In this document: positions 635 to 20,704 of the stretch, one piece after another
Layout of the letters: every line of letters starts with the position of its first letter
Position numbering within the stretch: position 1 is the stretch's first letter
Assembly (NCBI GenBank): GCA_963702925.1
Contig: OY969771.1
Span: 2,080,715-2,104,714 of the forward strand
Direction of reading: 5' to 3'
From: an uncultured Alphaproteobacteria bacterium
Lineage (GTDB): Bacteria; Pseudomonadota; Alphaproteobacteria; ATCC43930; CGMCC-115725
DNA: 24,000 nucleotides
The notes under the pieces: model-generated
Seen by the model: the letters and a program-made list of their open reading frames with translations, nothing else
Databases searched by the model: none
Told to the model about the DNA's origin: nothing
Made by a program: the position numbers and the translations under genes

Positions 635-1259
635 GCCGAACCGCACGCCCGATCTTGATGACGTCCTTGACGAGCTCGCCAAACTCCCTGCTCCGCCAGA
701 TGCGGGGACGCTGCGCGCCTGGACGAAAGAGTACCCTGGGTTCGCGCGCGAGATCGTTGCCTTCGCCACTGACTGGTTGGCGATGGATGCAGCACGCGTG
801 GAACGGTCCGCGACCGCCGAGGACATCGACCTCGTCGTCAACCGCACGATGAGCCGCGTGCAGACTATGCTTGACGCCGCGGAGCGCCCGGAGTCGATTA
901 TCGACCTCGCCGCCGACATCCGCGCGGCTGGACACGATTTCGATTCGTTCCAGCGCTTTCTCGGCATCGACAGGTCCATGCTGGACAGCCTGATTACGCG
1001 CCTGGCGAAGCCGGCGACCATACCGGCGTTGCTCGTCTGCTTGGCGGCCGAAGCGCTGAACCGGCCGCTCGATCGGCTGCGCGAATATTTCCGGCTCCCA
1101 GCGCAACTCGCCGGCGCCCACAAGTCTCGCGGGCGTCCGGTCCCGGCACAGGTTGACTTTACGGTGCTCGTTAGACATTCAAAACTGCCTGACCCCGACA
1201 AAGACCGGTGGCTGAAAGAACCGCCGGATCCGGACCTCCAGGGCAAACCGCATGGATAG
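624..1259 (+). CDS. Hypothetical protein, possible XRE-like HTH (candidate partner or substrate of the downstream ImmA-type peptidase domain, or an anti-sigma-like factor)
   Basis: The ORF track starts at 555, but AAGGAG (612-617) lies 6 nt before the ATG at 624, and ATG 618 is an alternative. The segment DIRAAGHDFDSFQRFLGIDRSMLDSLITRLAKPATIPALLVCLAAEALNRPLDRL resembles an XRE-type HTH pattern. The ORF overlaps both neighbours (sigma stop 632-634; helicase ATG 1252 versus its own stop 1257-1259). Confidence 0.55.
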   Translation: MTAKPNRTPDLDDVLDELAKLPAPPDAGTLRAWTKEYPGFAREIVAFATDWLAMDAARVERSATAEDIDLVVNRTMSRVQTMLDAAERPESIIDLAADIRAAGHDFDSFQRFLGIDRSMLDSLITRLAKPATIPALLVCLAAEALNRPLDRLREYFRLPAQLAGAHKSRGRPVPAQVDFTVLVRHSKLPDPDKDRWLKEPPDPDLQGKPHG

Positions 1260-4200
1260 CTTCGGCACCGTCCGTAGGCTCGCCCGCGAAAAGCATGAGG
1301 CGATGAAGGCTCGTGCGTCAGGCGACGGCACCGCAGCGGCACTCCTGGCTCAGGCGCGCACCACGACGAAAGCGGCGATCCACGGAGTGCCACCCGAACA
1401 TCCGCTGCTGGCCGGCGGCGACGGCGCGCTCCATAGGACCGGGCCGACGCCGTCGATCTACATCTCGGATGCGCTGGCTCCGGACCAGGCCGCCTACGTC
1501 GAGGCGCACGAATTCGGCCATCTCTGGATCGAGACACCGACCGAACCGGCGGTGGCGCCCTGCAACTCGGATCCATCGACGCCGGAAGAAAACACGCCAC
1601 TCGGACTACGTCGGGTAGAGGCCTACAGCCCGGAGGAACTGCGCGAGCGGTACGCCAACGTTTTCGGACGAGAGTTTCTTCTTCCGTGTTCGGAAGCAAA
1701 GCGACTATTCGGTTTGGGCAAATCGGCGAAGCAAATCGCAACCGACATCGGCGTCCCCATCGGCCTCGTCAACCAGCAGCTCGCGGCCGCGCTGCTGCTA
1801 CCCGAACCGTCCACCGAAGAGAAGGCTGTGGAGCGCGAGCGTCCAGGGCTCGACAAATCCCAGAAGATGGCCGCCGAACACGAAGGTTCGCCGCTGCTCG
1901 TCGAGGCGGGGCCTGGCACGGGCAAGACTCGCGCTCTAATCGCGCGGATCGAATATCTGCTTGCCAAGAACGTCCCGGCACCGAGCATTCTCGTCCTGAC
2001 TTTCTCGAACAAAGCTGCGAGGGAGATCAGAGAGCGCGTTGCGGGAAGCGTACCCGGAGCGGTGCCGGAAATCTGGGCGGGAACATTCCACGCCTTTGGC
2101 CTCGAACTCCTCCGCAAATACGGCCACCTCGACGGCATAGCCGAGCCCGTAAGGTTGCTCGATCAGGCCGACCAACTTGCACTGCTCGAACGCGAACTAC
2201 CGCGCCTCGGACTCGACCACTACTTGCGCCTTCACGAACCGCTTTTGGAACTCCGCAACATTATCGGCGCTATTTCGCGCGCGAAGGACGAAGTGTTCTC
2301 GCCGTCGGCATATGCGGACGCCGCCCGGCGCATGCTCTCGAAAGCTGGTTCCGATGAGGAACTCGTTCTGCGAGCCGAGAAAGCCGCGGAGGTCGGGCGG
2401 GTATATGCCCACTACGACGCTTGCCTTCGCGCCGAAGGCATCGTCGATTTTGCCGACCTCATCAACCAGCCCATCGAGATCCTGCGGAAGCATCCTGACA
2501 TCCGCGACGAATTGTGCGGCCAGTACACGCACATCCTGGTCGACGAATACCAGGACGTAAACCGCGCGAGCGCGCTGCTGCTCAAGGAGCTTGCCGGCGA
2601 GGGCGAGCACCTGTGGGTCGTCGGTGACGCACGGCAATCCATTTACCGGTTCAGAGGAGCCGCGCCTTCAAACACGACCGAGTTCGAGAAGGATTATCCA
2701 AAGGGCAAGCGTCTGCCGCTAGCCGTCAACTATCGGTCGAGAAAACAGATTGTCGATATGTTCGGAACCTACGCCGCCGGCATGAGCGTCGGCGGCGGCC
2801 GGAACCACTCACTTCGGGCGCACCACGGCGCAGGCACCAATCCGATCGACTTCAGCGTCGCGTCCGACCGTAACGCGGAGATCGCGGGAATCGCGGCCGT
2901 GATCCAGCGGCGGCGCTTGGCAGGCTGCGCCTACCGCGAACAGGCCGTACTTTGCCGCTCGCACTCCAATCTCCAGAAGATAGCGACAGGGCTCGAAGCT
3001 GTCGGCATACCCGTGCTGTACCTGGGCGACCTCTTCGAGCGGCCAGAAGTTCGAGACCTCCTTTCGCTCCTGTCGTTCGCATCCGAACGCCATCGCGGCG
3101 GCCTCATGAGGGTGGCAACGCTCCCGCGATGGCGCACACCGCTCGCCGACGTTCGGACGTTTCTTGCGCACGCCGCCGAGACTGAGAAGACGCCGCTCGC
3201 CGCCCTCGCGGCCGTGGAGAACCTCGACGACCTTTCGCTGACGGGGAGGAGTGCGCTCGCGCAGCTGCGCTCCGACCTCGATGGTGTCGGCTTCAAGACC
3301 GGGCCCGGGCAGTTCCTGTGCGACGTGCTGTTCGAGCGTGGTCTTGTCCGTGACTATCTCTCCGGCAACACAGCCGCTGACTGCCAGCGGCGGCTCGCCA
3401 TTCATCAGTTCCTTCAATTCGCTATTGAATACGACCGCGCGGGCGAAGGCGACCCAAAGCGCCGGCTGCTTGGCTGGGTCCGGCGGCTGGAGGTGTTCGG
3501 CGATGAGCGCGCACTGCGCGAACCACCGGCAGCTGTCGAAGGTATCGACGCGGTGCGGCTCATGACCGTTCACGCTAGTAAAGGTCTGGAGTTCGAGACC
3601 GTGCATCTGCCGACGCTTGGGAAAGGCATCTTCCCTCTGAAGCGGCACGGCGTGACCTGTCCTCCACCGGACGGAATGCTTCTTACGACGGCAGAGGATG
3701 ATCATAACGAGGAGGAAGAATGCCTCTTCTTCGTCGCGCTGTCGCGTGCTCGTGGCCACCTGTCGCTCTCGCGAGCGCAGCGCTATTCCGACAGCCAGCG
3801 CTCGAATCCTTCTCCCGCGCTTGAGGCGATCGCTGCACATCTCCCCCGGGCGCCGGACTCAGACCCTACATGGACGGCGCGGCTTCCCACGCCGACCGCA
3901 GGCGGGAGCCGCCTCGACCTCAAGCGCGCAGCGCGTGAGCACGACGGGCGGGACATTGAACTCTACATCGGTTGCCCACGCCGCTATCTCTATCAGGCGA
4001 TGCTAGGGCTGAGCGGCTCGCGCGAGGATAACGGCTACGTCCGGTTCCATGGCGTTCTCTACCGCGTGTTGGGTTGGATGGCCGAACAGACCGGCACCGT
4101 GACGACCGACGCGCTCAAAGCGGAAACGGACGCGCGCTGGGCCGAGACCGGTCCGACGGACCATCCGCTGCAGCCGCTATACCGCGCCTCCGCGCAGAAG

Positions 4201-4620
4201 ATCCTCGATCAGGCTAACGCGCGGCCGCGCAAGGGGATCCGGTTTGGAGAGACGCTGACCGCCACCATCGCCGGCCACACCATCAGCCTTTCGCTCGATG
4301 AGATCCAGAAGGACGGCCGTGGCTTCGTGATCCGTCGGCTCCGGACCGGGAAGGTGCCGAAGAAGCAGGACCACCGCGTCCTGCATGCGCTCATGGCGGA
4401 GGCCGGGAGGCAGGCGTTCGGAACAGGCGGCAAATTCGAAATCCGCTATCTCTCTTCCGACGACGCGGTGCCGATCTCCTTCGCCCGCGTCATGGCCGAC
4501 CGCCTCGAAGAGACCAAGGCCGTCATCGCAGGGCTCGCGGCCGGTGAATACCCGCCGATTCCGTCCGATAACTGCCCGCGCTGCCCGCACTACTTCATCT
4601 GCCAGGCCATTCCCGAGTGA
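1252..4620 (+). CDS. Three-domain fusion: N-terminal ImmA/IrrE (M78) metallopeptidase-like domain, UvrD/Rep-type SF1 helicase, and C-terminal Cas4/AddB-like PD-(D/E)xK nuclease with a Cys4 (Fe-S) cluster
   Basis: 1122 aa. Peptidase motifs: HEFGH (nt 1507-1521) followed by ERYANVFGREFLLP. Helicase motifs: GPGTGKT (1909-1929), TFHAFG, ILVDEYQDVN, VVGDARQSIYRFRGA, VNYRSRKQIV, TVHASKGLEFETVHLP, FFVALSRARGHL. Nuclease signatures: IGCPRRYLY (Cys codon 3973-3975), SLDEIQKD...IRRLRTGK, and CPRCPHYFIC (4573-4602). Confidence 0.9.
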   Translation: MDSFGTVRRLAREKHEAMKARASGDGTAAALLAQARTTTKAAIHGVPPEHPLLAGGDGALHRTGPTPSIYISDALAPDQAAYVEAHEFGHLWIETPTEPAVAPCNSDPSTPEENTPLGLRRVEAYSPEELRERYANVFGREFLLPCSEAKRLFGLGKSAKQIATDIGVPIGLVNQQLAAALLLPEPSTEEKAVERERPGLDKSQKMAAEHEGSPLLVEAGPGTGKTRALIARIEYLLAKNVPAPSILVLTFSNKAAREIRERVAGSVPGAVPEIWAGTFHAFGLELLRKYGHLDGIAEPVRLLDQADQLALLERELPRLGLDHYLRLHEPLLELRNIIGAISRAKDEVFSPSAYADAARRMLSKAGSDEELVLRAEKAAEVGRVYAHYDACLRAEGIVDFADLINQPIEILRKHPDIRDELCGQYTHILVDEYQDVNRASALLLKELAGEGEHLWVVGDARQSIYRFRGAAPSNTTEFEKDYPKGKRLPLAVNYRSRKQIVDMFGTYAAGMSVGGGRNHSLRAHHGAGTNPIDFSVASDRNAEIAGIAAVIQRRRLAGCAYREQAVLCRSHSNLQKIATGLEAVGIPVLYLGDLFERPEVRDLLSLLSFASERHRGGLMRVATLPRWRTPLADVRTFLAHAAETEKTPLAALAAVENLDDLSLTGRSALAQLRSDLDGVGFKTGPGQFLCDVLFERGLVRDYLSGNTAADCQRRLAIHQFLQFAIEYDRAGEGDPKRRLLGWVRRLEVFGDERALREPPAAVEGIDAVRLMTVHASKGLEFETVHLPTLGKGIFPLKRHGVTCPPPDGMLLTTAEDDHNEEEECLFFVALSRARGHLSLSRAQRYSDSQRSNPSPALEAIAAHLPRAPDSDPTWTARLPTPTAGGSRLDLKRAAREHDGRDIELYIGCPRRYLYQAMLGLSGSREDNGYVRFHGVLYRVLGWMAEQTGTVTTDALKAETDARWAETGPTDHPLQPLYRASAQKILDQANARPRKGIRFGETLTATIAGHTISLSLDEIQKDGRGFVIRRLRTGKVPKKQDHRVLHALMAEAGRQAFGTGGKFEIRYLSSDDAVPISFARVMADRLEETKAVIAGLAAGEYPPIPSDNCPRCPHYFICQAIPE

Positions 4621-4715: not shown

Positions 4716-5231
4716 ATGCGACCAATCGATGTCTTCGTCCAAGGCGGGGAAATCGCCGAAATTCTGGTCGGGCGCGCAGCCCCGATCCACTCGCTGGCCG
4801 AGGTGCTGGCCAATCTCGAACGTCCCGTTCCCCAGGGAGAAGGGATGCTGATCTTCGTCGAAGACATGCACGCGCCCGTCGATCCGGAGACGACCGTCGA
4901 GGAACTGCTGCCGCTGTGCGTCGACGAAGAGGCGATCATCGTGCCGCTGCGGCTCCACGTTTCGCGCTGCCGGCACGTCGAAGTGTCCGTCCGCTTCAAC
5001 GGCGAGCACGTAAAGCGTCGCTTCCCGCCTGGTGCCACCATCGGCCGTGTCCACCACTGGGCGGCGCGCCGCGCCTTCGGCCTGTCGCCCCGCGACGCGG
5101 CCGAGCACGTCCTGCAGATCCAGGGCACCCAGAAGCGCCCCGACCGTGACGTGCACATCGGGACGCTCACTTCCGGCACGACCTGTTCCATCGCGTTCGA
5201 CCTGGTGCCGCGCAAGCGGGTGGAGGGCTGA
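4716..5231 (+). CDS. Tandem beta-grasp ubiquitin-like protein (multiubiquitin / BilA-like) with a free C-terminal glycine
   Basis: 171 aa, with two halves of about 80 aa each, sized for beta-grasp domains. The protein ends ...LVPRKRVEG-stop (Gly codon 5226-5228). It is followed 2 nt later by the E2-like gene. Its position and size match the first gene of Ubl-E2-JAB-E1 operons. Confidence 0.7.
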
Positions 5232-5233
5232 AG

Positions 5234-5707
5234 ATGTCCACCGGCATCGGTCCAGACGAGGCGGTGTTCCGCAGCCATCTCGGCGGGGGCAGCTTCCTGC
5301 TCGGCACCACCGCCGGACGCTGGCGGCTGGTCTCGGTCGCCTGGCCGCACGCCGTGTTCGGCGTGCGTGCCGCGGACGGGATCGAGTACGGCCTCCGGTT
5401 TGAGTGCCGCGACTATCCGCACACGCCGGCCACGGCGCGGCCATGGGACATCGAACGCGACGCTCCCCTCGCGCCCGAACGCTGGCCGACCGGCAGGAGC
5501 CGCCTGCCGCTGGCGTTCAACCCGAGCTGGAAGAACGGTTCGTGCCTCTACCTGCCTTGCGACAGGCAGTCGATCGAGGGCCACGCGAACTGGCATCACG
5601 AACATCCGAGCCTGATCTGGGATCCCGCCCTCGGCATCGTCCATTACCTGCGGATCGTCCACGATCTCCTCAACTCAGGCGACTACGGGGGACGCCGTGC
5701 AGCATGA
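5234..5707 (+). CDS. Prokaryotic E2/UBC-like ubiquitin-conjugating enzyme homologue (BilB-like)
   Basis: 157 aa, tightly packed between the Ubl and JAB genes. Candidate catalytic cysteines lie in [18 protein letters not shown]. The assignment rests mainly on size and operon position plus this Cys-loop, so it is less certain than the JAB and E1 calls. Confidence 0.6.
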
Positions 5708-6179
5708 TCCGTTACTGCGCATCGCCCGGCCGCTGTGGCGCGAGATGACTACCGAGCTCCACCGCCGCACTGAAGGCCGCCACGAGTCCGGCGCGTTCCT
5801 GCTTGGGCACAAGGCGGCCGACGGGCGCACCGCGCGCGCGCTCGTCTATTACGACGATCTCGACCCGCTCGCCTACGACACGGGCATCTGCGTGTTGCAC
5901 GCGGACGCCTTCTCACGGTTGTGGGACATCTGCGGGGAACGCGATTTGTCTGTGGTCGCCGATGCCCACGTCCACGGCGGCCGCGCCGGCCAGAGCCCAT
6001 CGGACCGCGAAAATCCGATGATCGCGTGCCCCGGCCATCTCGCGCTCATCCTTCCTCTGATGGCTCGGCCTCCCGTGCGCCGGTGGGCAGTCGGCATCTA
6101 CGAATATCTCGGCGAGCACCGGTGGCGGCCGCACGGCGGCTGCTGTGGATCGCGCATTCTCAAGATAGAGGACGAATGA
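5697..6179 (+). CDS. JAB/JAMM (MPN+) metalloprotease, deconjugating enzyme (BilC-like)
   Basis: 160 aa. It has the upstream Glu in HESGAFLLG and a JAMM-like metal site, [13 protein letters not shown] (H-x-H-x6-S-x2-D). The GTG start at 5697 overlaps the E2 stop by 11 nt. The stop at 6177-6179 overlaps the E1 ATG at 6176. Confidence 0.85.
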
Positions 6180-7534
6180 TGAACGACTTGGAAGCGGTGT
6201 CGGATGCGCTCAACCGTCTCGTCAAGATCGCGCTCGACACGGGCGAGGCGTCGAGCGTCGAGGAGGCGGAGCAGATCTTCAGAAACTACCGGATGCAGAT
6301 CGTCGTCGGCGCCGACGTCATGCACAACGCCGTGCTGCAGGCGACGTTGCTGACGGCGGTCAACTGCGCTGCACGCAGCTTCCTGGGCGGCGTGACCGTC
6401 GTCGGAGCGTTGGGTGTTCTGCGCGTGATGCTGCCTCCGTTCCTCGACCTCGAAACCGCCGTCGCTGGCCTCGGTGCGCGGAGGACGGAGGTGCCGGATC
6501 CGGACCTGCCGATGCTGGTGATCGGCGATGTCGATGTCGCTCTATTGAAGCCGCTCGCAATCCGGGCGACGTTTTCTCAGTGGTGCGGCGGCATCGTTCC
6601 GGCCGCGAGCAACGTACGTCTAGCCGAGATTGGCGCGTTCACTCCAGCAGGCGTGCTCGCTGGCGCGCTGGGCGTTTGCGAGATATTCCAGCGCGTGCGC
6701 GGAGGTGCGCCGATGGCGTGCCGGAGGGCCGCCGGTCTGGACCTCTGGGATCCGCGGCGGGACTGGCTGCGCGGCGAAAGCGCGCCGCCTCCAGAGCGCC
6801 TTCCCGCCGCTGCGTGGCTCGTCGGGATGGGCAATCTCGGTCAGGCCTACCTCTGGACGCTCGCGCTTCTTCCCTACGGCGAAGAAGCCGCCAACCTTGT
6901 CTTGCAGGACACCGATATTCTCGCGCCATCCAACCTCAGCACGTCGTTGCTGACCACGCGTGAAAGGATGAAACGGCGCAAGACGCGGGAGATGGCTGCG
7001 TGGGCCGAAACGCGCGGCTTCAGGACGTCCATAGTGGAGCGGATTTTCGCAGCCGACTTCAGGGTCGGTGAACGCGAGCCTGCAGTGGCGCTCATTGGCG
7101 TCGACAACGCGCTCGCCCGGCAGTCGATTGAAGACGTAGGATTCGCGCGCATCATTGAGGCCGGTCTCGGCCGTGGACCGCAGGATTTTCTCGGCATCGA
7201 CCTGCACACGTTCCCCGCGTCGAAGACGGCGCGGGAAACTTGGCCGGAGACAGGCGCGTCGGACGCCGACATCGCGCAACCGGCCTACCGCGCGATACTC
7301 GAACGGACTGGGGATCGTTGCGGGACCGTGCGCCTTGCCGGCCGTTCCGTCGGCGCACCGTTCGTCGGCGCGGCAGCTGCGGCCCTCGCCATCGCTGAGT
7401 TGATGAGGCTCTGTCTCGGAGGAACGCGCTACGAAATGGTTTCGTGCCACCTGCGCGATCTGCAAGGACGCATCATCGTCCCCAATGGACAGGAGGCACC
7501 TTTCAACCCGGGCAGCATCCAAGTCGCCGCGTAG
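6176..7534 (+). CDS. E1-like ThiF/MoeB-family adenylyltransferase (BilD-like) with a long N-terminal, possibly degenerate Rossmann-like domain
   Basis: The ORF track gives 5921-7534, but the first 85 codons are R/P-rich and overlap the JAB gene, so the ATGATG at 6176 (coupled to the JAB stop) is the likely start. That gives 452 aa. Motifs: nucleotide-binding loop LVGMGNLGQ, LVLQDTD, IGVDNALARQ, and a candidate catalytic Cys in GDRCGT. Confidence 0.85.
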   Translation: MMNDLEAVSDALNRLVKIALDTGEASSVEEAEQIFRNYRMQIVVGADVMHNAVLQATLLTAVNCAARSFLGGVTVVGALGVLRVMLPPFLDLETAVAGLGARRTEVPDPDLPMLVIGDVDVALLKPLAIRATFSQWCGGIVPAASNVRLAEIGAFTPAGVLAGALGVCEIFQRVRGGAPMACRRAAGLDLWDPRRDWLRGESAPPPERLPAAAWLVGMGNLGQAYLWTLALLPYGEEAANLVLQDTDILAPSNLSTSLLTTRERMKRRKTREMAAWAETRGFRTSIVERIFAADFRVGEREPAVALIGVDNALARQSIEDVGFARIIEAGLGRGPQDFLGIDLHTFPASKTARETWPETGASDADIAQPAYRAILERTGDRCGTVRLAGRSVGAPFVGAAAAALAIAELMRLCLGGTRYEMVSCHLRDLQGRIIVPNGQEAPFNPGSIQVAA

Positions 7535-7543
7535 CGGCGACTT
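7521..7543. terminator. Perfect 10-bp inverted repeat (AAGTCGCCGC-GTA-GCGGCGACTT) spanning the E1 stop codon; possible bidirectional terminator between convergent genes, or a protein-binding palindrome
   Basis: Read directly from the sequence. The stop TAG (7532-7534) sits in the loop/stem junction. No U-tract follows on either strand, so intrinsic terminator function is uncertain. A tandem GATTAAG repeat follows at 7549-7555 and 7557-7563. Confidence 0.35.
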
Positions 7544-7600
7544 GGTGAGATTAAGCGATTAAGTCGGCACGGCCCATATCGCGCTTGTGTGGTCGGGATT

Positions 7601-8914
7601 TCAGTCAGCTCGCATGCCCCCCCTAGGAAGCCATGCTTTGTGTCCGATTATTCGGCGTGGCGGCGGACTCCCCAGCAGCGCGAGGCCGTCCCGATAAAGA
7701 GCGTACGTGTATTCGGATGCCAGCAAAGTTAGCCCAGCGTCCTCACCGCCAATTGCGAAGCCGACAGGATCGGTCCGCGGAAGCTCGAGTGAATCTGGGA
7801 CGTTGTCTCTCCCGTTCCGGACGATCGCACTCAAAGCGTTGAGAAACCGCTCGGCGGCCTTCTCCTCCATCACGAACCATCCGGCGAATTCGTTTCCGTC
7901 CCGCCGCAGCCTGTGTGTTCCCCAGAGGCGAGGCCACCATCTCGGGTGCCAGAATTCGTCCAACCAGTCTGGCGAGTCGCTGAAGGGCCATCCCGATTCC
8001 ATGCAGGCCAGGAATATTCGGCCAGCATAGGGAATCTGTATGAAGCTCACCGGTGCCGTATCGTTTGGACGCTCTCCTCCGTCGCGAACCCAATCGATCC
8101 ATCGCGCGACGCTAGGCGCGTTCATCAAAGAAAAGTTAGACCGATGCGCGGAAAGCGCGAGCGATGTTGGCGTTGCCTCAGGACCTGGCATCGGATCCGC
8201 CTGTGTCGGAGGCCGGCGCTTGCCACGCGGTTTGGGAATCCGCGTCTCAGCGACGTGCAGGAAGGCACCCGCTGCTCCCGGTCTGGAGCCAAACGCTATC
8301 GAGTATCCGTGAACGACCTTGCCGTGAGGAGAGATCGCGGCGAGATGAGGCTTCACCTGCCGCAGATATTTGTGCTTCGCTTGGCGGCTGATGCCGGCGG
8401 ACGTGACATTTGCTGCAAATGACCCACGCGCTTCGGCCAGCACCACGCCGTGTCCCGATACGGCACCATCACCGTAAATGAAATCGGCGTGCGGCGCGAG
8501 CGAGCGTGATAGGCAGGACGCGTTGTCCCTCCAAGTGTAGCCCAGCGCGTTCACGGGCAAGTCAGTGACGCCGGTGCCAATGCGTCCAGCAAAGGACGTC
8601 CGCTCGGCATCGACGAGAGAATGGACATACCGTGTTAGCGCGAAGGTAGTGCCGTCGTCGACCAACCATTCCACTTCCGTCAGCGCGCTGTCGCCCCACC
8701 GCGTCAGCATTTCCGACGGCGCGTCTCGGAGCGTTGCCGTCCTTGCGATCGAGGCAGCGAGCGCGCCCGGTCCGAATATCAGTGTCGTACCTGCATTGGG
8801 TGGCTTGAAGCCCGCGGAGATGGGGCTTGGACTGTGTCGATGCTGCGTATGGCCGGTGACAGAGACCATCTTGTCACTGCGCCAGATCGCGGGAGCAGAC
8901 AGGACGGTGCTCAC
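7601..8914 (-). CDS. Hypothetical protein, 437 aa (possible PD-(D/E)xK-like core in the N-terminal half; Trp-rich C-terminal domain)
   Basis: GTG start at 8914 is preceded by AAGGAG with a 6-nt spacer. The amino-acid composition looks like a real protein. The segment FAGRIGTGVTDLPVNALGYTW...APHADFIYGDG...VVLAEARGSF...KHKYLRQVKP is reminiscent of restriction-endonuclease-fold cores (D...E-x-K with K replaced by R). The C-terminus contains DWLDEFWHPRWWPRLWG. I recognise no confident family. Confidence 0.7.
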   Translation of the reverse strand: MSTVLSAPAIWRSDKMVSVTGHTQHRHSPSPISAGFKPPNAGTTLIFGPGALAASIARTATLRDAPSEMLTRWGDSALTEVEWLVDDGTTFALTRYVHSLVDAERTSFAGRIGTGVTDLPVNALGYTWRDNASCLSRSLAPHADFIYGDGAVSGHGVVLAEARGSFAANVTSAGISRQAKHKYLRQVKPHLAAISPHGKVVHGYSIAFGSRPGAAGAFLHVAETRIPKPRGKRRPPTQADPMPGPEATPTSLALSAHRSNFSLMNAPSVARWIDWVRDGGERPNDTAPVSFIQIPYAGRIFLACMESGWPFSDSPDWLDEFWHPRWWPRLWGTHRLRRDGNEFAGWFVMEEKAAERFLNALSAIVRNGRDNVPDSLELPRTDPVGFAIGGEDAGLTLLASEYTYALYRDGLALLGSPPPRRIIGHKAWLPRGGMRAD

Positions 8915-8950
8915 GACACGCTCCTTATCGACCGGCTCCGGCTGTCCACT

Positions 8951-9487
8951 TTATGAGGCATCGCAAGACGGGAGGATCGACGCGAGATCGGGCTCGACGT
9001 CGAGACCATATTGATATGCCAGAGCCGCGATGTGCGTGCCAAACGTCGCCCGCAATTCGCCCAGGGCCACGAAGAAGGACGGGCTGCCCTCTTCGTCGTC
9101 TGAATGCCGCGGGCCGTGCCATCGCATGAGGTTGCGGAAATCTGGCGCCGGCTCTTCGAGGAATCTTCGACACGCGGCACGCATGGCGCGAACGGAACCC
9201 GCGGCCCGCGACGTTTCGGGCAAAGCCTGCAAGGCCTTTGTCAGCACCTCACGAATCTGGAGCACCGAGGAAGTGACCTGGGAGACGACCTCAAGGTGAT
9301 GGGGAACGAATAGAACGCGCCGATCTTCCAAGACCGTTAGAAGGCCTCTGACGATTTCGCGCTCGTCGGCGGGCGGTGTCCACTGAACGCCGAAGAACGG
9401 CAGCGAGAATCCGGTCAATCGGTTCACCGGCGATTTCGCCGCGATCTGTCCCTTCTTGGTGATATTTCGCGATCTGGCCACCTTCAC
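8951..9487 (-). CDS. Hypothetical protein, about 176-178 aa
   Basis: The ORF lies 36 nt upstream of the 437-aa gene on the same strand. GGGGAGG abuts the GTG at 9487 and lies 6 nt before the in-frame GTG at 9481, so 9481 is the more likely start. No recognisable motif. Confidence 0.65.
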   Translation of the reverse strand: MKVARSRNITKKGQIAAKSPVNRLTGFSLPFFGVQWTPPADEREIVRGLLTVLEDRRVLFVPHHLEVVSQVTSSVLQIREVLTKALQALPETSRAAGSVRAMRAACRRFLEEPAPDFRNLMRWHGPRHSDDEEGSPSFFVALGELRATFGTHIAALAYQYGLDVEPDLASILPSCDAS

Positions 9488-9546
9488 CCTCCCCGACCTT
9501 TGTTATACGCCGCATCCGACTGGAATTGATGCTCCCCAATCGGCAC

Positions 9547-10461
9547 TCACCGGAGTAGCCGCATGAGCGCGTCTGATTGCTCGGCGAACTTTAGGGCGTT
9601 GGTCTTCCGAAGCCGTTCCAGGTTTTGCAGCTTCCAGCGCAGGCCGGGGAGCTGCTCCAGATGCGGCACGCCCAGCAGCGGCCATTCGGGCTTTGCGGCG
9701 ACTAGCGACAGCAGAAACCGGCGTTCGTCAGCGCCCAGACCTTGCTGGAGCTCGCGCATCATCCGGTCGCGCGCCGCCAGGAGCGCATCGAGCTCGACGG
9801 GCTCGGCGGTCATGCCTGTGAAATTGTGCTCGAACTCCTGGCGGATGTCGCGCAGTGATGGAAACAGGACCTCGTGGACCGGCCGGTTATGACTCGCGAG
9901 GTAGACGACGAACGCGCGGCGAATGCCGATGGTGATTCCCTCATGCGCGAAGAGCTGCAGGACATCGAACAGATCGCGGGGATGTTGGCGGTCCATCGCT
10001 GCCACCAGCTTGCCGCCATACACGTCCTCGAGCGACACGACTGGGATCTCGATATCCGCCTGCAGCGTCTCGCGCGCAGTCTGTGTCAGCGACGCCCTGC
10101 GCACCGGAAGGACGGTGCCGCGCATGACGAAGTTGACCTCGATCTTGACCTCGATGTTGCCCCGCCGCACCAGCAGCTTGGTCTCGCCGGCCGCCGCGGC
10201 GGCCGGCGCATGGGTCTGGAAGCCTTGCTTCTGCAGGCGTGCCGCGGACTGGCGAATGGCCTCGTTGATGCGCTGGAGCGCCTGCTCGCGCGGCAGCGTG
10301 TGGTCGGGAAACACCAGGTCGAGGTCGACCGAGAGCCGCGGCATGTCGCGCACGAAGAGATTGATCGCCGTGCCGCCCTTGAGCGCGAACGTGTCGTCGA
10401 CGAGCACGAGCGGCGCGACGCGCGTCAGCAGCCGTGCGCTGTCTAGATAGACCTGGTTCAT
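9547..10461 (-). CDS. abiEii: AbiEii/AbiGii-family nucleotidyltransferase toxin (type IV toxin-antitoxin / abortive infection)
   Basis: 304 aa. It carries the nucleotidyltransferase-fold signature ALKGGTAINLF...LSVDLDLVF and the overall DUF1814-like pattern (VSLEDVYGGKLVAAMDRQHPRDLFDV). An ATGA start/stop overlap with the upstream antitoxin gene lies at 10458-10461. Confidence 0.9.
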   Translation of the reverse strand: MNQVYLDSARLLTRVAPLVLVDDTFALKGGTAINLFVRDMPRLSVDLDLVFPDHTLPREQALQRINEAIRQSAARLQKQGFQTHAPAAAAAGETKLLVRRGNIEVKIEVNFVMRGTVLPVRRASLTQTARETLQADIEIPVVSLEDVYGGKLVAAMDRQHPRDLFDVLQLFAHEGITIGIRRAFVVYLASHNRPVHEVLFPSLRDIRQEFEHNFTGMTAEPVELDALLAARDRMMRELQQGLGADERRFLLSLVAAKPEWPLLGVPHLEQLPGLRWKLQNLERLRKTNALKFAEQSDALMRLLR

Positions 10462-11195
10462 GGCTTCAGCACCAGGAGCCCGTCACCGGAACGGGACACC
10501 CACGGCCGGTCGCTGCCTTTAGGCAACTGAGACGGATCGAGCTTGCCAGCCCAGGGCTGGGAGAGTTCGCGGCCGAGCTGCAGGCATAGGCGCACGGTCT
10601 TGATGCTGGTGCAGCGCTTGAGCAGGTCGCGCAGCACGTCGGCGCGCAGACTATAGGTGCTCTCGACCAGCTCGCGCGCTTCCTGCAGCGGCTGCCGGAC
10701 GCCGACTTCGCTCAACACCTCCAGCAATGCGCGTTCCGGCGCCGAGACGAGCGGACCGCCCTTGCGGTTCTCGAAGGGCCGGACGTGAAGCAGCGCGTCC
10801 GGCTCCTCCTTGAAGAGCCGCTTGCGATGGTACTCGGCCGGGAAGCGCTGGGTGAACCACTCCGGAAGGTGCCCGGCCTTCCAGCCGTAAAGATCTAGGA
10901 CAGCCCGTTGCGACAGGTACTGGCGTATGCCATGCCAGTCGAGCGCGGACTTGCCGCCAACGTGCAATCCGTCGAAGCTCCGCTGCAGCAGAGCGAGGCT
11001 CGGGTGCATGGCGGGCGGATCGTTCGGCCGGCAATAGACGCCGCGCGACAGCCGTTGCAGCCAGCCGGCACGGACATAGTGGACGGCGAGGTCGGCCGAT
11101 ATCCCCAGGGCGGCGAGGTCCTCGGAGGTCAGCGGCGTCCCCGGCGCCAGGCGGGTATAAAGCCGATTTAGCTTGTTTCTGTGAGTCGTAGGCAT
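10458..11195 (-). CDS. abiEi: AbiEi-family antitoxin / transcriptional autoregulator (N-terminal wHTH)
   Basis: The ORF track begins at 11252, but I prefer Met-20 (ATG at 11195). The N-terminus MPTTHRNKLNRLYTRLAPGTPLTSEDLAALGISADLAVHYVRAGWLQRLSRGVYCRP matches the AbiEi wHTH pattern. The stretch 11196-11252 is AT-richer and promoter-like. Confidence 0.85.
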   Translation of the reverse strand: MPTTHRNKLNRLYTRLAPGTPLTSEDLAALGISADLAVHYVRAGWLQRLSRGVYCRPNDPPAMHPSLALLQRSFDGLHVGGKSALDWHGIRQYLSQRAVLDLYGWKAGHLPEWFTQRFPAEYHRKRLFKEEPDALLHVRPFENRKGGPLVSAPERALLEVLSEVGVRQPLQEARELVESTYSLRADVLRDLLKRCTSIKTVRLCLQLGRELSQPWAGKLDPSQLPKGSDRPWVSRSGDGLLVLKP

Positions 11196-11204
11196 ACTAC
11201 GACT
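11184..11204. promoter_or_regulatory. Inverted repeat IR1, AGTCGTAG-gcata-CTACGACT, centred on the abiEi start codon; candidate AbiEi operator
   Basis: Perfect 8-bp arms read directly from the sequence. It shares the TCGTAG/CTACGA half-site with IR2. Confidence 0.5.
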
Positions 11205-11231
11205 ATAACAACAATTCGAAGGCGTGGCCAA
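11202..11231 (-). promoter_or_regulatory. Putative sigma-70-type promoter for abiEi-abiEii (-35 TTGGCC, 18-nt spacer, -10 TATAGT) predicting a leaderless or near-leaderless mRNA
   Basis: The minus strand reads TTGGCC-N18-TATAGT-CGTAGT-ATG. There is no Shine-Dalgarno before the ATG at 11195. This is pattern-based only. Confidence 0.3.
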
Positions 11232-11250
11232 GTTTGGGTTCGGCACCACC

Positions 11251-11269
11251 ATCGTAGCTCAGCTACGAT
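11251..11269. promoter_or_regulatory. Inverted repeat IR2, ATCGTAGC-tca-GCTACGAT; second candidate AbiEi operator
   Basis: Perfect 8-bp arms, with the same TCGTAG core as IR1, whose nearest arm lies 46 bp away. AbiEi proteins are known to autorepress through paired inverted repeats in their promoter. Confidence 0.45.
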
Positions 11270-11499
11270 AATTCGCGTCATTCTAAATCAGAATTGAGGG
11301 GAAAGCTGTCCCTTGCCGCCGAGTTTTGGGGTCTCGGCCGAACCCTTCCGCGGGGAGACCCCACAACGCCCCAGAGCGAGAGTGCAGACGGAGTTTTCCG
11401 TCACGGCTCTAGCCAGTCAAGGCGAAGCCATACAACTGCACTGAACCGAATGGGAGTGACACCAATGCTTAAGGAGGAGCCGAGAAACCCCCGTGCCGC

Positions 11500-12765
11500 T
11501 CACGCACCATTGCCGCCGCGGCGCCTCTGCGAACGTGCGAGCTGTATCGCGAGATGACCAACCGCTAGCTTCACGTAGCGCTGGACCATCTTTGGACTTT
11601 TCCATCCCCCGAGCACCATGAGCGAAGGGGCATCGACACCGTCCATGACCGCCCAGCTCGCCCAATGATGGCGCCAATCGTGAATTCTAAACCAGTTGAT
11701 TTTCGCAACGAGTTCCGGGCGGCAGGTCTTATGGCAGCTTGCGCAGGAGAGCGCGTAGTCGCTCAGCTCCTCCCGTTCGCCGGCGGGACGAACAACCGCG
11801 AGCTCGACGCACGCGTTCGCCGGGCCTCCTGGTGCCGCGCTGAGCTTGGCGCCGCAATGCAGACAGGTTTTTTGGTCCTTCAGAAGCTTCTTGATCGTGA
11901 ACCGCCGTAGCGCCGTGGCGTGCGCCTTCCGAATACCCGAACCGTCGCGCCCCTCACCATGCGAGGCGCTGCGGCGATCGACATAAGGCGTTCCATCTGG
12001 CTTGACGAACACCGGCCCGCTGGTTTGAAGATTATGCATCTTCTCCAACGTCGCGCGGACTTCCGGGTGCATCGGCGCGACCCGCATGTCGCCGTTCTTC
12101 GTCTTGCGGAAGGTCACTGTGTCGCGACTTAAGCTGACGTCCGGCCATTGCAGACGAAGCGCTTCGGATTCGCGGCACCCTTGAAGGCAAAGCGTCAGCG
12201 CAATGGGCTTCGCGTGGTCGGCATATTCCGCCAGAAGCCCGTCTCGGTCCTCGGACTCCAGGAAGATCTCCCGAACGGCTCCGTCGGACGGCAACACGAA
12301 CTTCGGCAAGGTGAGCTTGAACTTCTCCGCCGTGCGCACGAGCGGCGGCGAAAACATCGCGTACCAGCGCCGCACCGTGGCCGGCGCCGGATCGTCGAGC
12401 TTCTCGGCGACGAACTTATCCCAGTCTTCGGGCTCGAAGGAGTCGACCGGCTTCTCTTCGAAGAACTTTCCGAGACGCAGCAGCTTCTGGCGGTCCTGGT
12501 TCCCGAGTGGCGTACTTCCTTTTGCCTTTGCGTCCACGTAGTCGGCGGCGGCCGTCGCGAAGCCGGGGATGGCCTTTGATTTGGCGGGCTTTTCGCCGCG
12601 GAGCAGCTGCTCGCTGATCTCGGCGCAGCGGCGGGTATAAATTACCTGCGCGCTTGTCTTGTCGCGGCAGCCCGTAGTCTCTCTAATCCGGACGCTCGTT
12701 TTCCCAACGCGGATCGTGCCAACGATCCAGAAGACGGCACCCCGTTTGGTGAGCTTGGAGGACAT
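11500..12765 (-). CDS. Tyrosine recombinase / phage-type integrase with a CxxC...CxxC insertion in the catalytic domain
   Basis: 421 aa. It has an arm-binding-like N-terminus (KRGAVFWIVGTIRVGKTSVRIRETTG). Catalytic elements: LQGCRESEALRLQWPDV (Arg), HDWRHHWAS (HxxR), GGWKSPKMVQRYVKL (Tyr). An extra segment, CLHCGAKLS...CASCHKTC, lies between the K-hairpin and HxxR. Confidence 0.9.
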   Translation of the reverse strand: MSSKLTKRGAVFWIVGTIRVGKTSVRIRETTGCRDKTSAQVIYTRRCAEISEQLLRGEKPAKSKAIPGFATAAADYVDAKAKGSTPLGNQDRQKLLRLGKFFEEKPVDSFEPEDWDKFVAEKLDDPAPATVRRWYAMFSPPLVRTAEKFKLTLPKFVLPSDGAVREIFLESEDRDGLLAEYADHAKPIALTLCLQGCRESEALRLQWPDVSLSRDTVTFRKTKNGDMRVAPMHPEVRATLEKMHNLQTSGPVFVKPDGTPYVDRRSASHGEGRDGSGIRKAHATALRRFTIKKLLKDQKTCLHCGAKLSAAPGGPANACVELAVVRPAGEREELSDYALSCASCHKTCRPELVAKINWFRIHDWRHHWASWAVMDGVDAPSLMVLGGWKSPKMVQRYVKLAVGHLAIQLARSQRRRGGNGA

Positions 12766-18496: not shown

Positions 18497-20704
18497 ATGC
18501 GCAGCTTAGCCGATGCTCTCGCCGTCCAGACGCTACGGACGGATCCCCGCAACCCGAGCGCGCGCGCCCGCCGCGGCGCCGCAAGTCGAGGCATTGAGGC
18601 CGCGGCGCGGGCCTTGGGAAAGCCCGCTTCGGAGCTCCCAGCCGATGCGACGGCCATCGCGGCAATGCAGTCCGCCAAGGTGGACCGACAGGCGGTCTGG
18701 GCGGCGAGACGGGCGATCGAGGTGGTCGAAGCTGTTCCCGAACCCAACCTGCGGACGGCAGTCGCCGTCGCGCGGAAAGCCGATCCGACGCTCGCGGATG
18801 TCATGGACGCCGTCGGGGTCACGGACTGGGACGACAAAGGACGCGTCATCCGGTCTTTGCAGTGCGTCGCCGCGTTCCTGCGGCTGGCGCCGGCGGAAAT
18901 CCCGGCGCGCTTCGCCGAACTCGACGAGCCTGCGCTGAAAAAAATGACGGCGGGTCATTTCCGCGTCGATTCCCCGGCTACGGCTAAAGTCATGCGATCG
19001 CGCGCCCGCGCGGCGATCCGCCTGTTGGATTGCTTCAACGGAAGGCGCCCGATCGGTCAACTCAATGGCGGATGGGAGACCCTGCGTTTCCATCTCGATG
19101 CTGCGATCAGAGGAAAAATTGTGAATGGCAGCTCGCGCGGCGAGCTTCTCCCTTTCTTCGCGTTTTGTAGTGCCAAGGGGTTCGGGCCTGGGCAGGCCGA
19201 CAAAGCGGTAGCCGCCTGGGCCGCTCAGCTCGAGCATGAAAAGAAGCGGGGTTGGAAGAAAAAGGTACGGCGGCTCGTCCATCGTTGGAACGCGCTCGGG
19301 GAATCGCATCTGATCGCAAGCCTTCCGAGCGTCCGGCTCGCCGCGCCGACGTTCCCCACGCATCGTGTTGCGCGTTCTTTCAAAGATCTCAATCCGCTTT
19401 TGCAACTGTCTTGGAAGGACTGGGAAAAACGTCACACGCCGCCGCGCTCCGCCACCTCGCTGCTGGAGAGGATTTTCCCGAAGTCCGCCGCGGGCCGCCC
19501 TCCGGCGGCTCCGTCGTCGACGCCGCAGCTGGAACAGCTTTTCGCCCGGCGACCGGGACCGGACGCTCGTGGGCGGCGCGATTATCTGTCGGCGACCTAT
19601 CTAAAGGGTCTCGAATGGCATCTTTGCTTCGTCTATACGCGCCTCGTCGAGGAGGGCGTTCCGGAGGCCAAGCTCGCTTCCGTCGAAGCCGTGCTCACCT
19701 ACGAGAGATTTTCCATGGCTTTGGAGGCCATGATCCGTCGGAAATACGCCAAGAGCGACCGCGAGGGACAACCCCCTCATCTCGATGCCTCGATCGAGCG
19801 GTTCGCCTCGCAGCTGATCACGATCGCGAAAGGAGCTGGCGTCGACCAGGCTGATCTCGAGGAGATGGACCGCGTCGCCAACGCGCTGCGGCGGGAGACC
19901 GCCTCGGGCGGCCCACGCAACGGCTGCCAAATGAGTCCGCGGCGCCGGGCGATGCTGCAGCAGTTCAACGCCCCGGAGCGAATTCTGGCCTGGTATTACC
20001 GGCCGGCGCGCATCTACGAGCAAGTCATGAAAGCGCTCGGCGCCGTCGCGAATGGTCGCGTTCAGTTCGCGCTCATCGACCCCGAGAATATCACGAAGGA
20101 GCGCTGCGCTGCGATGGAATCGGCTGTGGTCATGCTCATTGAGCAGAACATGCCGCTTCGTTGCAGAAACGTCGGCACGACGCGCTGGAAGGGTGATCGG
20201 CCGAACCTGAGCCTGCCCACGAGGCAAGGCGAAGACGGCTTTCTTCGCTACGACGGCGCGGAAACCAAGACCAAGGTGAACCTTTCCACGCCGCTCGATC
20301 CCGACGCCGTTCAGCTCATCCGCGTCTGGATCGAAGTTTTTCTGCCATGGAAGATCGCCAAGCAAGGCGTCGATCCCGCGAACGTCTATCTATTCCCGGC
20401 GCGCGGCCTCGAGCATAAGGGCCTCTCCAACCTCACTACCAACGTGAGGCGGCAGTACGCGGCGGTCGGGCTCGATCTCGACCTCCATATTCACCGTGCG
20501 CTCGCGGGCAAGATCATTCTCACTGTTCACCCCTTCAGCATCGAGCTCGTCGCGCGGCTGCTCGGGCATCGCGATGCCGAGGTCACGCGCAAGTTCTACG
20601 CCGAGGAGGTGGACCCCTTCATCGTCCACGCCACATGGCAGCGCATCCTCAAGTCGGAAATCGAGCGGCTCAGTCAGAAGAAGCTTCTGACCCCGGTTCC
20701 GTGA
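18497..20704 (+). CDS. Large (735 aa) tyrosine recombinase with extended N-terminal region
   Basis: GGAGAA lies 6 nt before the ATG. The C-terminal catalytic domain has NMPLRCRNVG (Arg), VWIEVFLPW, LHIHRALAGKI (HxxR) and LLGHRDAEVTRKFYAE (His/Tyr). The N-terminal region of about 480 aa has no counterpart in ordinary integrases. Confidence 0.8.
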   Translation: MRSLADALAVQTLRTDPRNPSARARRGAASRGIEAAARALGKPASELPADATAIAAMQSAKVDRQAVWAARRAIEVVEAVPEPNLRTAVAVARKADPTLADVMDAVGVTDWDDKGRVIRSLQCVAAFLRLAPAEIPARFAELDEPALKKMTAGHFRVDSPATAKVMRSRARAAIRLLDCFNGRRPIGQLNGGWETLRFHLDAAIRGKIVNGSSRGELLPFFAFCSAKGFGPGQADKAVAAWAAQLEHEKKRGWKKKVRRLVHRWNALGESHLIASLPSVRLAAPTFPTHRVARSFKDLNPLLQLSWKDWEKRHTPPRSATSLLERIFPKSAAGRPPAAPSSTPQLEQLFARRPGPDARGRRDYLSATYLKGLEWHLCFVYTRLVEEGVPEAKLASVEAVLTYERFSMALEAMIRRKYAKSDREGQPPHLDASIERFASQLITIAKGAGVDQADLEEMDRVANALRRETASGGPRNGCQMSPRRRAMLQQFNAPERILAWYYRPARIYEQVMKALGAVANGRVQFALIDPENITKERCAAMESAVVMLIEQNMPLRCRNVGTTRWKGDRPNLSLPTRQGEDGFLRYDGAETKTKVNLSTPLDPDAVQLIRVWIEVFLPWKIAKQGVDPANVYLFPARGLEHKGLSNLTTNVRRQYAAVGLDLDLHIHRALAGKIILTVHPFSIELVARLLGHRDAEVTRKFYAEEVDPFIVHATWQRILKSEIERLSQKKLLTPVP

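Follow-up and report, generated by a model that had tools for sequence, protein, structure and literature searches.

Two adjacent minus-strand genes at positions 7601 to 9487 of the window, the stretch of 24,000 nucleotides (nt) of alphaproteobacterial DNA analyzed here, appear to form the 3' half of a four-gene unit, abiEi-abiEii-DUF6650-BIG, in a defense island. The larger gene, BIG, encodes a protein of 437 amino acids (aa) that is predicted to be a PD-(D/E)xK nuclease. The smaller gene encodes a DUF6650 protein that appears to be a TIR-less relative of ThsG, and both genes look like portable promoterless cassettes. This reading as a whole has about an even chance of being correct. The analysis establishes the genes themselves, their families, the conservation and covariation of motifs, the context counts, and the module boundaries, whereas nuclease activity, a role in defense, co-transcription, and any cooperation of DUF6650 with BIG are inferred. 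The unit would lie inside an island flanked by integrases and by Bil, AbiE, and UvrD-type systems, with the cassettes read from the abiE promoter. In many unrelated anti-phage operons BIG would be the final cistron, often with translational coupling, and it probably acts alone, adding a DNA-targeting layer against phages or other mobile elements. The features of the unit are as follows.

7601-8914, minus strand: BIG (437-aa protein); GTG start, intact, final gene of the array
8915-8950, minus strand: 36-nt spacer between the small gene and BIG, holding the Shine-Dalgarno sequence of BIG
8951-9481 (probable) or 8951-9487 (first-pass annotation), minus strand: DUF6650 (ThsG-like) gene; GTG start either way
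9547-10461, minus strand: abiEii; Pfam AbiEii 4e-44, PADLOC AbiEii 2.5e-113
10458-11252, minus strand: abiEi; Pfam AbiEi_3 5e-39, PADLOC AbiEi 1.9e-66
11202-11231, minus strand: σ70-like promoter TTGGCC-18-TATAGT; sole match in 7300-11600
7519-7545: 12-bp perfect GC-rich hairpin CCAAGUCGCCGC-UAC-GCGGCGACUUGG, between the convergent BIG and bilD

Both open reading frames (ORFs) are real and widely conserved genes, since there are 323 homologues of the BIG protein and 708 of the small protein. The first-pass annotation had called them at 7601-8914 (437 aa) and 8951-9487 (178 aa), 36 nt apart on the minus strand, and these coordinates were confirmed, as was the strong Shine-Dalgarno sequence of the larger gene (AAGGAG-N6-GTG, with AAGGAG at 8926-8921, 6 nt ahead of the GTG at 8914). 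The pair does lie directly after abiEi-abiEii on the same strand, with the 59-nt gap that had been described, and it is convergent with the gene formerly labeled E1, which is bilD and ends at 7534. Recognized systems are present on both sides, as had been claimed: a complete BilABCD cassette and AbiE, identified by Pfam and PADLOC. The length of the small gene needs revision. Its start is probably the GTG at 9481, giving 176 aa rather than 178, because this start has the arrangement GGAGG-N6-GTG while a start at 9487 would have zero spacing from the Shine-Dalgarno sequence, the homologues are mostly 176 aa long, and the exact 176-aa product is present in the protein collection while the 178-aa version is absent. 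The distance to the abiEii stop (9547) is 59 nt from 9487 and 65 nt from 9481. The true start of abiEi is probably M20, at about 11195.

The arrangement of signals supports, without proving, a single four-gene transcript. AbiE, a type IV toxin-antitoxin and abortive infection pair, is the head of the array, and the unit is presumably transcribed from the σ70-like site at 11231-11202, which lies shortly before the probable start of abiEi. The evidence for one transcript is that this is the sole promoter-like site, located above abiEi, and that the first strong hairpin along the array comes after BIG, at 7519-7545. No promoter-like site was found in the 36-nt spacer at 8915-8950. The hairpin straddles the bilD stop codon and has no U-tract. 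The folding z-score of the region (7505-7600) is -3.25 against shuffled sequences, and the hairpin is a candidate bidirectional terminator. A 3.8-kb block from 11406 to 7601, comprising the promoter, abiEi, abiEii, DUF6650, and BIG, is conserved whole at about 80% nucleotide identity in four of the compared loci, which carry L numbers here (L001, L002, L069, and L073).

The BIG protein

BIG belongs to a family that is modest in size, with 366 cluster representatives at 50% identity in an exhaustive profile search, and that has no match in the libraries searched. None of the 323 homologues has a Pfam domain, and scanning all 60 BIG family members singly against Pfam (E <=5) gave nothing. BIG itself has no match in Pfam, NCBIfam, PHROGs, or PADLOC, and neither protein of the pair matches the defense or PDC families of PADLOC-DB v2.0.0 at E <=0.1. 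Searches of the PDB sequences with phmmer and two profiles gave no match to BIG, and a profile search that included divergent members gained no annotated relatives. Foldseek found nothing below E=0.7 for BIG in the PDB; FAN1 and RecE are among the fold matches at noise level. In a fold search of BFVD the first-ranked match is annotated as "PD-(D/E)XK nuclease superfamily" (E=0.016), as are ranks 8, 13, and 17, all of them sub-threshold. No sequence-profile or structural match of BIG to established PD-(D/E)xK members reached significance. The earlier statement that neither protein matches a family stands for BIG and fails for the small protein, which matches PF20355 above threshold.

The case for a nuclease comes from the predicted fold and from residue conservation. 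The AlphaFold2 model of BIG (predicted local distance difference test [pLDDT] 81, predicted template modeling score 0.83) has the order α102-123, β128-131, β144-148, β157-165, α172-190, β198-209, or αβββαβ. The first helix carries D102 and E104, strand 2 opens with D144 (PHADF), strand 3 contains E161-A-R163, and K182-Y183 and Q186 lie on the next helix. BIG thus has the αβββαβ order with an acidic residue starting strand 2 and a (D/E)xK-type motif on strand 3, as judged by motif and order of secondary structure and not by three-dimensional superposition. The regions of the protein map to the window as follows.

8240-8617, minus strand: PD-(D/E)xK-like core, residues ~100-225, from the AlphaFold2 model and alignment
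7604-8179, minus strand: C-terminal α/β domain, residues 246-437, with invariant D409-G410
7886-7993, minus strand: Trp-rich stretch, residues 308-343, a lineage-specific insert inside the C-terminal domain

The core residues are nearly invariant in an alignment of 277 members: D144 is found in 275 of 276, Y147 in 273 of 276, E161 in 275 of 277, and Q186 in 276 of 277. Position 163 is variable. The 60 most divergent members have lysine there, and hence the canonical E-A-K, while 154 have histidine and 54, including the window protein, have arginine. It also covaries with position 182. K163 occurs with alanine or glycine at 182 in 59 of 60 cases, H163 or R163 occurs with K182 in all 206, and K182 is also present in the few sequences that have Y, G, F, T, or S at position 163. 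Lysine migration is a known variation in the PD-(D/E)xK superfamily. We read the change from lysine to arginine as a relocation, in which the predicted active site would keep D144 and E161 while the catalytic lysine has moved from position 163 of the E-x-K strand to K182 on the next helix. The first-pass annotation had described a PD-(D/E)xK-like core with its lysine replaced by arginine. The core holds up, given the conserved D144 and E161 and the αβββαβ order, and the replacement is better described as a relocated lysine. On the model and the alignment, BIG is most likely a Mg2+-dependent PD-(D/E)xK nuclease.

The PD-(D/E)xK superfamily, which includes single-protein defense nucleases and relocated-lysine variants, appears to hold the nearest known relatives of BIG. 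Shared features are the predicted αβββαβ core, D144 at the start of strand 2, an acidic motif on helix 1, E-x-K on strand 3 in the deep-branching members, and a conserved Y/Q on the next helix. BIG differs from described members in having no significant sequence or fold match to them, in having arginine or histidine at position 163 in the window clade, and in carrying an extra 190-residue C-terminal domain and an N-terminal region of about 100 residues. The C-terminal domain is possibly sensing or regulatory. It contains an RDGLA motif in which D409 is conserved in 239 of 239 sequences and G410 in 238 of 239. The "Trp-rich C-terminal domain" of the first-pass annotation is not a domain. It is a low-confidence, poorly conserved insert within this larger domain, with pLDDT below 50 at residues 308-323 and 328-343 and with gappy, variable alignment columns. 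The idea that BIG is a TIR or other signal-generating enzyme was rejected, as sequence and fold gave it no support.

If BIG is an active defense nuclease, it represents a family that is absent from Pfam, NCBIfam, PADLOC, and the PDB sequence set and that comprises at least 366 clusters at 50% identity. The family is widespread on plasmids and integrative and conjugative elements (ICEs) of Alphaproteobacteria, including rhizobia, relatives of Brucella and Ochrobactrum, and Nitrobacter. The lysine swap between positions 163 and 182 points to a ready set of mutants.

The DUF6650 protein

The small protein belongs to a family with published roles in defense. It scores 41.4 bits with Pfam DUF6650 (PF20355), above the cut-off of 27 (E=1.7e-10), over positions 4-145 of the 150-position model, and it matches phrog_29952 at 3e-26. 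PF20355 is present in all 120 homologues listed. Its AlphaFold2 model (pLDDT 77) consists of a four-helix bundle, with helices at 42-54, 68-88, 96-111, and 136-160, preceded by a basic, disordered N-terminus. The fold matches are generic four-helix bundles only, and searches of the PDB sequences gave no match. The protein keeps many invariant arginines (R23, R56, R57, R79, and R107). Operons of TIR and DUF6650 genes have been described as type VI Thoeris, in which the DUF6650 protein, ThsG, is an effector responding to 2'cADPR and is modeled as a homo-hexameric tube with basic pockets; the authors call the route of toxicity of ThsG proteins lacking transmembrane helices unclear (bioRxiv 10.64898/2025.12.03.692087). 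DUF6650 is also among the domains newly implicated in defense by DefensePredictor, through the single-gene system DS-27 (PMC13092281). The proposal that the small gene is a defense candidate gains from these published roles of its domain.

By sequence, the window protein is a TIR-less relative of ThsG. It falls in PF20355 above the gathering threshold, and it is small and without transmembrane helices, like the two validated effectors with a Bacillus scaffold. The invariant arginines of its family are compatible, though merely compatible, with the basic ligand pockets described for ThsG. In contrast to ThsG, it has no neighboring TIR/ThsB gene, nor is there one elsewhere among the annotated window genes, and it is placed between abiEii and a nuclease-like gene. 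The hexameric tube and the response to 2'cADPR are features reported in the preprint; the window protein was modeled as a monomer. No TIR match was found among the 19 window proteins scanned, and the adjacent TIR gene (ThsB) of type VI Thoeris is missing. TIR was also not found beside 86 related DUF6650 loci (80 metagenome and 6 viral), either among the matches listed or by one-seed jackhmmer, which is a weak test. The neighbors of the subfamily at these loci are hypervariable, and the commonest Pfam family among 107 proteins flanking DUF6650 is AbiEii, with four matches. The DUF6650 protein would most likely be an oligomeric module with basic pockets binding a nucleotide-like ligand. It travels with BIG in the window clade, and it may or may not gate BIG. 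The TIR-less DUF6650 clade has more than 700 clusters, raising the question of how ThsG-type proteins might be activated without TIR and how those without transmembrane helices act.

Two other proteins were compared with the pair. DS-27 "SMEK" (PMC13092281) is a validated Escherichia coli defense gene encoding a single protein of 299 aa with an annotated C-terminal DUF6650-like region. A comparison by hhalign gave a probability below 1% for DS-27 against both the DUF6650 profile (A2) and the BIG profile (A4), so any relationship to the window genes is at best very remote. The possibility that DS-27 is a Rosetta-stone fusion of nuclease and DUF6650 was ruled out, as it resembles neither profile. 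At L063 (5989-7908) and L064, a DUF6650 protein 58% identical to that of the window is followed after 54 nt by a gene for an unrelated 438-aa protein with a ParB/Srx-like DGNRR motif, and the two genes form a small island amid housekeeping genes. This 438-aa gene was rejected as a BIG homologue. These loci show that DUF6650 pairs with differing large downstream genes of like size.

Genomic context and rival explanations

BIG is typically the last gene of a co-directional array, and the arrays often contain defense genes. A scan of one genome per species gave 61 BIG loci, mostly from Alphaproteobacteria with few from other groups. A co-directional ORF of at least 100 aa ends no more than 600 nt upstream of BIG in 59 of the 62 loci judged. 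The gap is 60 nt or less in 41 loci, and there is an overlap in 15, of which 13 have an ATGA stop/start. A divergent neighbor was seen at one locus only. Recognized defense genes are present in the flanks of at least 30 of the 61 genome loci, counting annotated clusters only. At 22 loci a known system directly abuts the start of BIG or of its DUF6650 partner (AbiE, Gabija, DISARM, type III restriction-modification, Drm-like/HNH, and PDC-S49). The argument from guilt by association made in the first-pass annotation is strongly supported by these counts for the 437-aa protein, and both genes are strong defense candidates by association. Genes directly upstream of BIG include the following.

L029, L061, and plasmid CP091035: AbiEii
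L035, L038-40, L046, L047, L049, and L056: GajB, in arrays AbiEi-AbiEii-GajA-GajB-BIG
L005 and L015: DrmB after DrmA, with SIR2-APAZ/prokaryotic Argonaute (pAgo) downstream
L006: type III Res
L020: KAP-NTPase / PDC-S49
L034 and L043: HNH, at the end of a cluster of SNF2, DrmMI-like methylase, and LmuB-like genes
Various loci: several proteins without annotation

The boundaries of homology indicate that BIG is a discrete promoterless cassette and that DUF6650-BIG is a slightly larger one. In all comparisons homology to the window runs as far as the BIG stop codon (7601) or stops about 40 nt short of it, and it begins at different points: at 11406, above abiEi, in L001, L002, L069, and L073; at 9476-9489, the start of DUF6650, in L003, L004, L007, L010, L011, L013, and L074 (9463 in L009 and L014); and at 8923, 9 nt before BIG, in L005 and L015. 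Across contexts, homology to BIG starts just 9-75 nt upstream of the start codon, and between the Gabija-linked and HNH-linked subgroups it starts 22 nt before the ATG. L069 and L070 keep AbiE-DUF6650 and lack BIG. Where L066 has a 1386-nt segment with BIG, L069 has 211 nt of unrelated sequence, and a HigA-like gene lies downstream in both. Two further ideas were rejected. BIG is not a fixed backbone "landing pad" gene, as homology in the window clade stops at its stop codon and both flanks vary, and a search for a 3' recombination site or hairpin shared across the BIG loci found none.

Mobile-element hallmarks are frequent near BIG, among them a 718-aa ParB_N protein, a Strawberry-notch helicase, DUF7146-Toprim, YAcAr, and serine recombinases. 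Of the 12 plasmids found with BIG, 8 are conjugative, and two distant K-type relatives are likewise in mobile-element contexts. It was not found in 50,697 phage records and 2.9 M viral contigs.

Whether DUF6650 and BIG are partners depends on the clade. DUF6650 lies directly upstream of BIG in 11 close-clade genome loci, in the window, and in seven metagenome contigs (L066-68 and L071-74), and in this closest clade, where it does so behind at least four upstream contexts, the pair moves as a unit. Among genome loci whose BIG is at least 68% identical, 11 of the 14 that can be judged keep both genes, while L005, L006, and L015 have BIG alone, with a 3' remnant of DUF6650 in L006. The proposal that the genes are conserved as a pair is correct for this clade, and elsewhere each occurs without the other: 46 of the 61 BIG genome loci have no DUF6650, and nearly all DUF6650 loci outside the closest clade have no BIG. 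Because pairing is limited to the closest clade, an "orphan two-gene system" is not established.

These distributions bear on several rival explanations. It is possible, though doubtful, that DUF6650 and BIG work together as a two-gene system analogous to type VI Thoeris but independent of TIR. In it a ThsG-like oligomer would bind a nucleotide signal made by the cell or the phage and would then switch on or release BIG, the nuclease, as killing or restricting effector. Sequence running from the start of DUF6650 to the BIG stop codon is found at 71-76% nucleotide identity behind at least four contexts (AbiE, HNH, a 1155-aa gene, and c32/c53 genes) in Hyphomicrobiales, Rhodobacterales, and metagenome-assembled genomes of Gemmataceae and Binatia. 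The spacer is 24-55 nt and has no promoter, and the unclear toxicity of ThsG proteins without transmembrane helices (bioRxiv 10.64898/2025.12.03.692087) leaves room for a partner. Beyond the many BIG loci that lack DUF6650, this explanation is opposed by the metagenome and viral loci, where BIG accompanies only the closest DUF6650 clade (7 of 86) and the rest have hypervariable neighbors, by loss variants within the clade in both directions (L005, L006, and L015 with BIG only; L069 and L070 with DUF6650 only), and by the fact that no signal-producing enzyme was identified. Nor are the small proteins before BIG in other clades (c19, c68, c27, a 194-aa protein, and c18) divergent forms of DUF6650, since hhalign gave them a probability of 1.2% or less. 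A constitutive BIG toxin with DUF6650 as its antitoxin is unlikely because BIG is found directly after GajB, AbiEii, DrmB, or Res with no small partner. The pair might instead be extra parts of an extended AbiE system, with BIG, with or without DUF6650, working together with the AbiEii nucleotidyltransferase toxin and the AbiEi regulator. The association is recurrent: 12 of the 61 genome loci, plasmid CP091035, and the window have AbiEi-AbiEii at the head of a BIG array in the same orientation, while in L019 AbiE is on the opposite strand. The linked AbiEii proteins are of three subtypes with no mutual similarity at the BLAST level, although their BIG proteins are 44-53% identical. In L029, L061, and L153 the AbiEii and BIG genes overlap by 4 nt. 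The window, L001, and L002 share the order AbiE-DUF6650-BIG, six loci have the order AbiE-GajA-GajB-BIG, and the block from promoter to BIG is conserved whole. In the window DUF6650 and BIG lie on one strand with a bona fide abiEi-abiEii, in the same conserved block and probably under the same promoter. AbiE is known as a self-sufficient bicistronic system, defined by two genes. Co-occurrence with abiEi/abiEii is not obligate (12 of 61 BIG genome loci and 4 of 107 DUF6650 neighbors), and BIG is coupled equally tightly to GajB, DrmB, Res, KAP-NTPase, and unannotated genes. The frequency of AbiE in such islands, together with its autoregulated promoter, could alone explain the linkage. The extended operon suggested by the first-pass annotation is partly right. 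It is favored by the conserved 3.8-kb block and the three AbiE subtypes, but both genes also lie behind many non-AbiE operons, Gabija, DISARM, and restriction-modification among them, which argues that they are portable modules and not AbiE components. As about three quarters of BIG loci have no AbiE, we treat AbiE mainly as a common promoter-bearing array head, and the extended system is very unlikely.

BIG could also be a mobile-element gene that hitch-hikes in cargo hotspots, serving ICE or plasmid establishment, anti-defense, or competition between elements, or being a selfish nuclease cassette. The ICE and plasmid hallmarks at many loci fit this, including YAcAr SLOG proteins and both serine and tyrosine recombinases, as do a DUF932 gene adjoining a distant BIG relative, the conjugative plasmids (8 of 12), and the behavior of BIG as a discrete 1.4-kb insertion or deletion with sharp boundaries. 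It is nevertheless quite unlikely, as BIG is co-oriented and translationally coupled with defense operons and not with genes for transfer or of the leading region, its flanks vary too much for site-specific homing, comparison across clades showed neither terminal repeats nor a conserved 3' element, and BIG was not found in phages. In a more novel reading BIG would be a generic promoterless "tail" nuclease, attached downstream to immune operons of unrelated kinds (AbiE, Gabija, DISARM, restriction-modification, and ThsG-like), and a shared second-line effector or back-up that would in this clade be gated by a TIR-independent nucleotide sensor of the ThsG type. This reading is unlikely; if true, it would represent a new modular coupling between defense systems, with the Thoeris VI effector used without TIR for the first time. 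The reading preferred here, of portable cassettes with a nuclease that acts alone, has several points against it. The canonical lysine is an arginine in the window BIG, so its activity is putative, and the covariation of positions 163 and 182 may stem from one ancestral switch. The DUF6650 protein is without the TIR that defines its sole characterized system. The scan used patterns specific to the H/R clade, so the sampling of BIG loci is biased. The defense role is purely associative, and the contexts are accessory regions of ICEs and plasmids that also host anti-defense or maintenance genes. The position of BIG as the coupled last cistron of unrelated systems bears on how defense islands are assembled and co-regulated.

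Minor observations and other genes of the window

Some BIG loci have further notable arrangements. At L005 (4601-15555) and L015 the order is DrmA-DrmB, BIG, SIR2-APAZ (short pAgo-associated), and a 500-aa gene, all co-directional, placing BIG at the seam of two known systems. At L152, on Agrobacterium vaccinii plasmid NZ_CP054149 (3460-13359), two TIR genes are followed in the same direction by DUF4238, genes of 230 aa and 168 aa, BIG, and a gene for a TrlF-family AAA-like ATPase. This ATPase, of 992 aa, also lies after BIG in L045, L052, and L053 and may be a recurrent downstream partner. L034 (9880-10004) and L043 have a possible 40-codon micro-ORF between HNH and BIG. Its last seven codons (Q-P/A-A-E-F-K-E*) match the tail of GajB in Gabija-linked loci, with the same ATGA overlap with BIG, as read from an alignment by hand.

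Downstream of BIG, L047 (6921-7200) has about 280 nt of AT-rich non-coding sequence, which is also present in L034, L038, L039, L043, L055, L056, and L060, all of the Gabija/HNH-linked subgroup. It has one sharp shared boundary (...CAATCGAGTGGGAGTGA) in 8 of 8 loci, followed by full divergence, and it is missing from the window clade. The boundary looks like the end of an element or a recombination junction. Frameshifted or truncated copies of BIG or DUF6650 occur in L004, L013, L028, L050-L053, L060, and L061, suggesting that the cassettes decay readily in some genomes.

The window also contains these genes around the unit.

1252-4620, plus strand: 1122-aa fusion of Peptidase_M78 (IrrE-like), UvrD helicase, and PDDEXK_1 nuclease (Pfam)
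4716-7534, plus strand: complete BilABCD cassette, PADLOC E-values 1e-53 to 3e-163, convergent with BIG
11500-12765, minus strand: tyrosine integrase of 421 aa (Pfam), adjoining abiEi

The top PADLOC matches of the 1122-aa fusion are GajB and a DRT-associated helicase, and there is no GajA partner in the window. The BilD ORF, with a listed start at 5921, is over-extended, as the profile match begins at residue 91. No tRNA gene was found within the window. Two neighboring tyrosine-recombinase-like genes of outsized length (735 and 739 aa) follow an HTH_17 gene at 18497-22854 on the plus strand. A C-5 cytosine methylase is present as well, and the segment 14762-16372 on the minus strand was noted together with the recombinases and the integrase. 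The recombinases, integrase, and methylase suggest an integrative element carrying the defense island.

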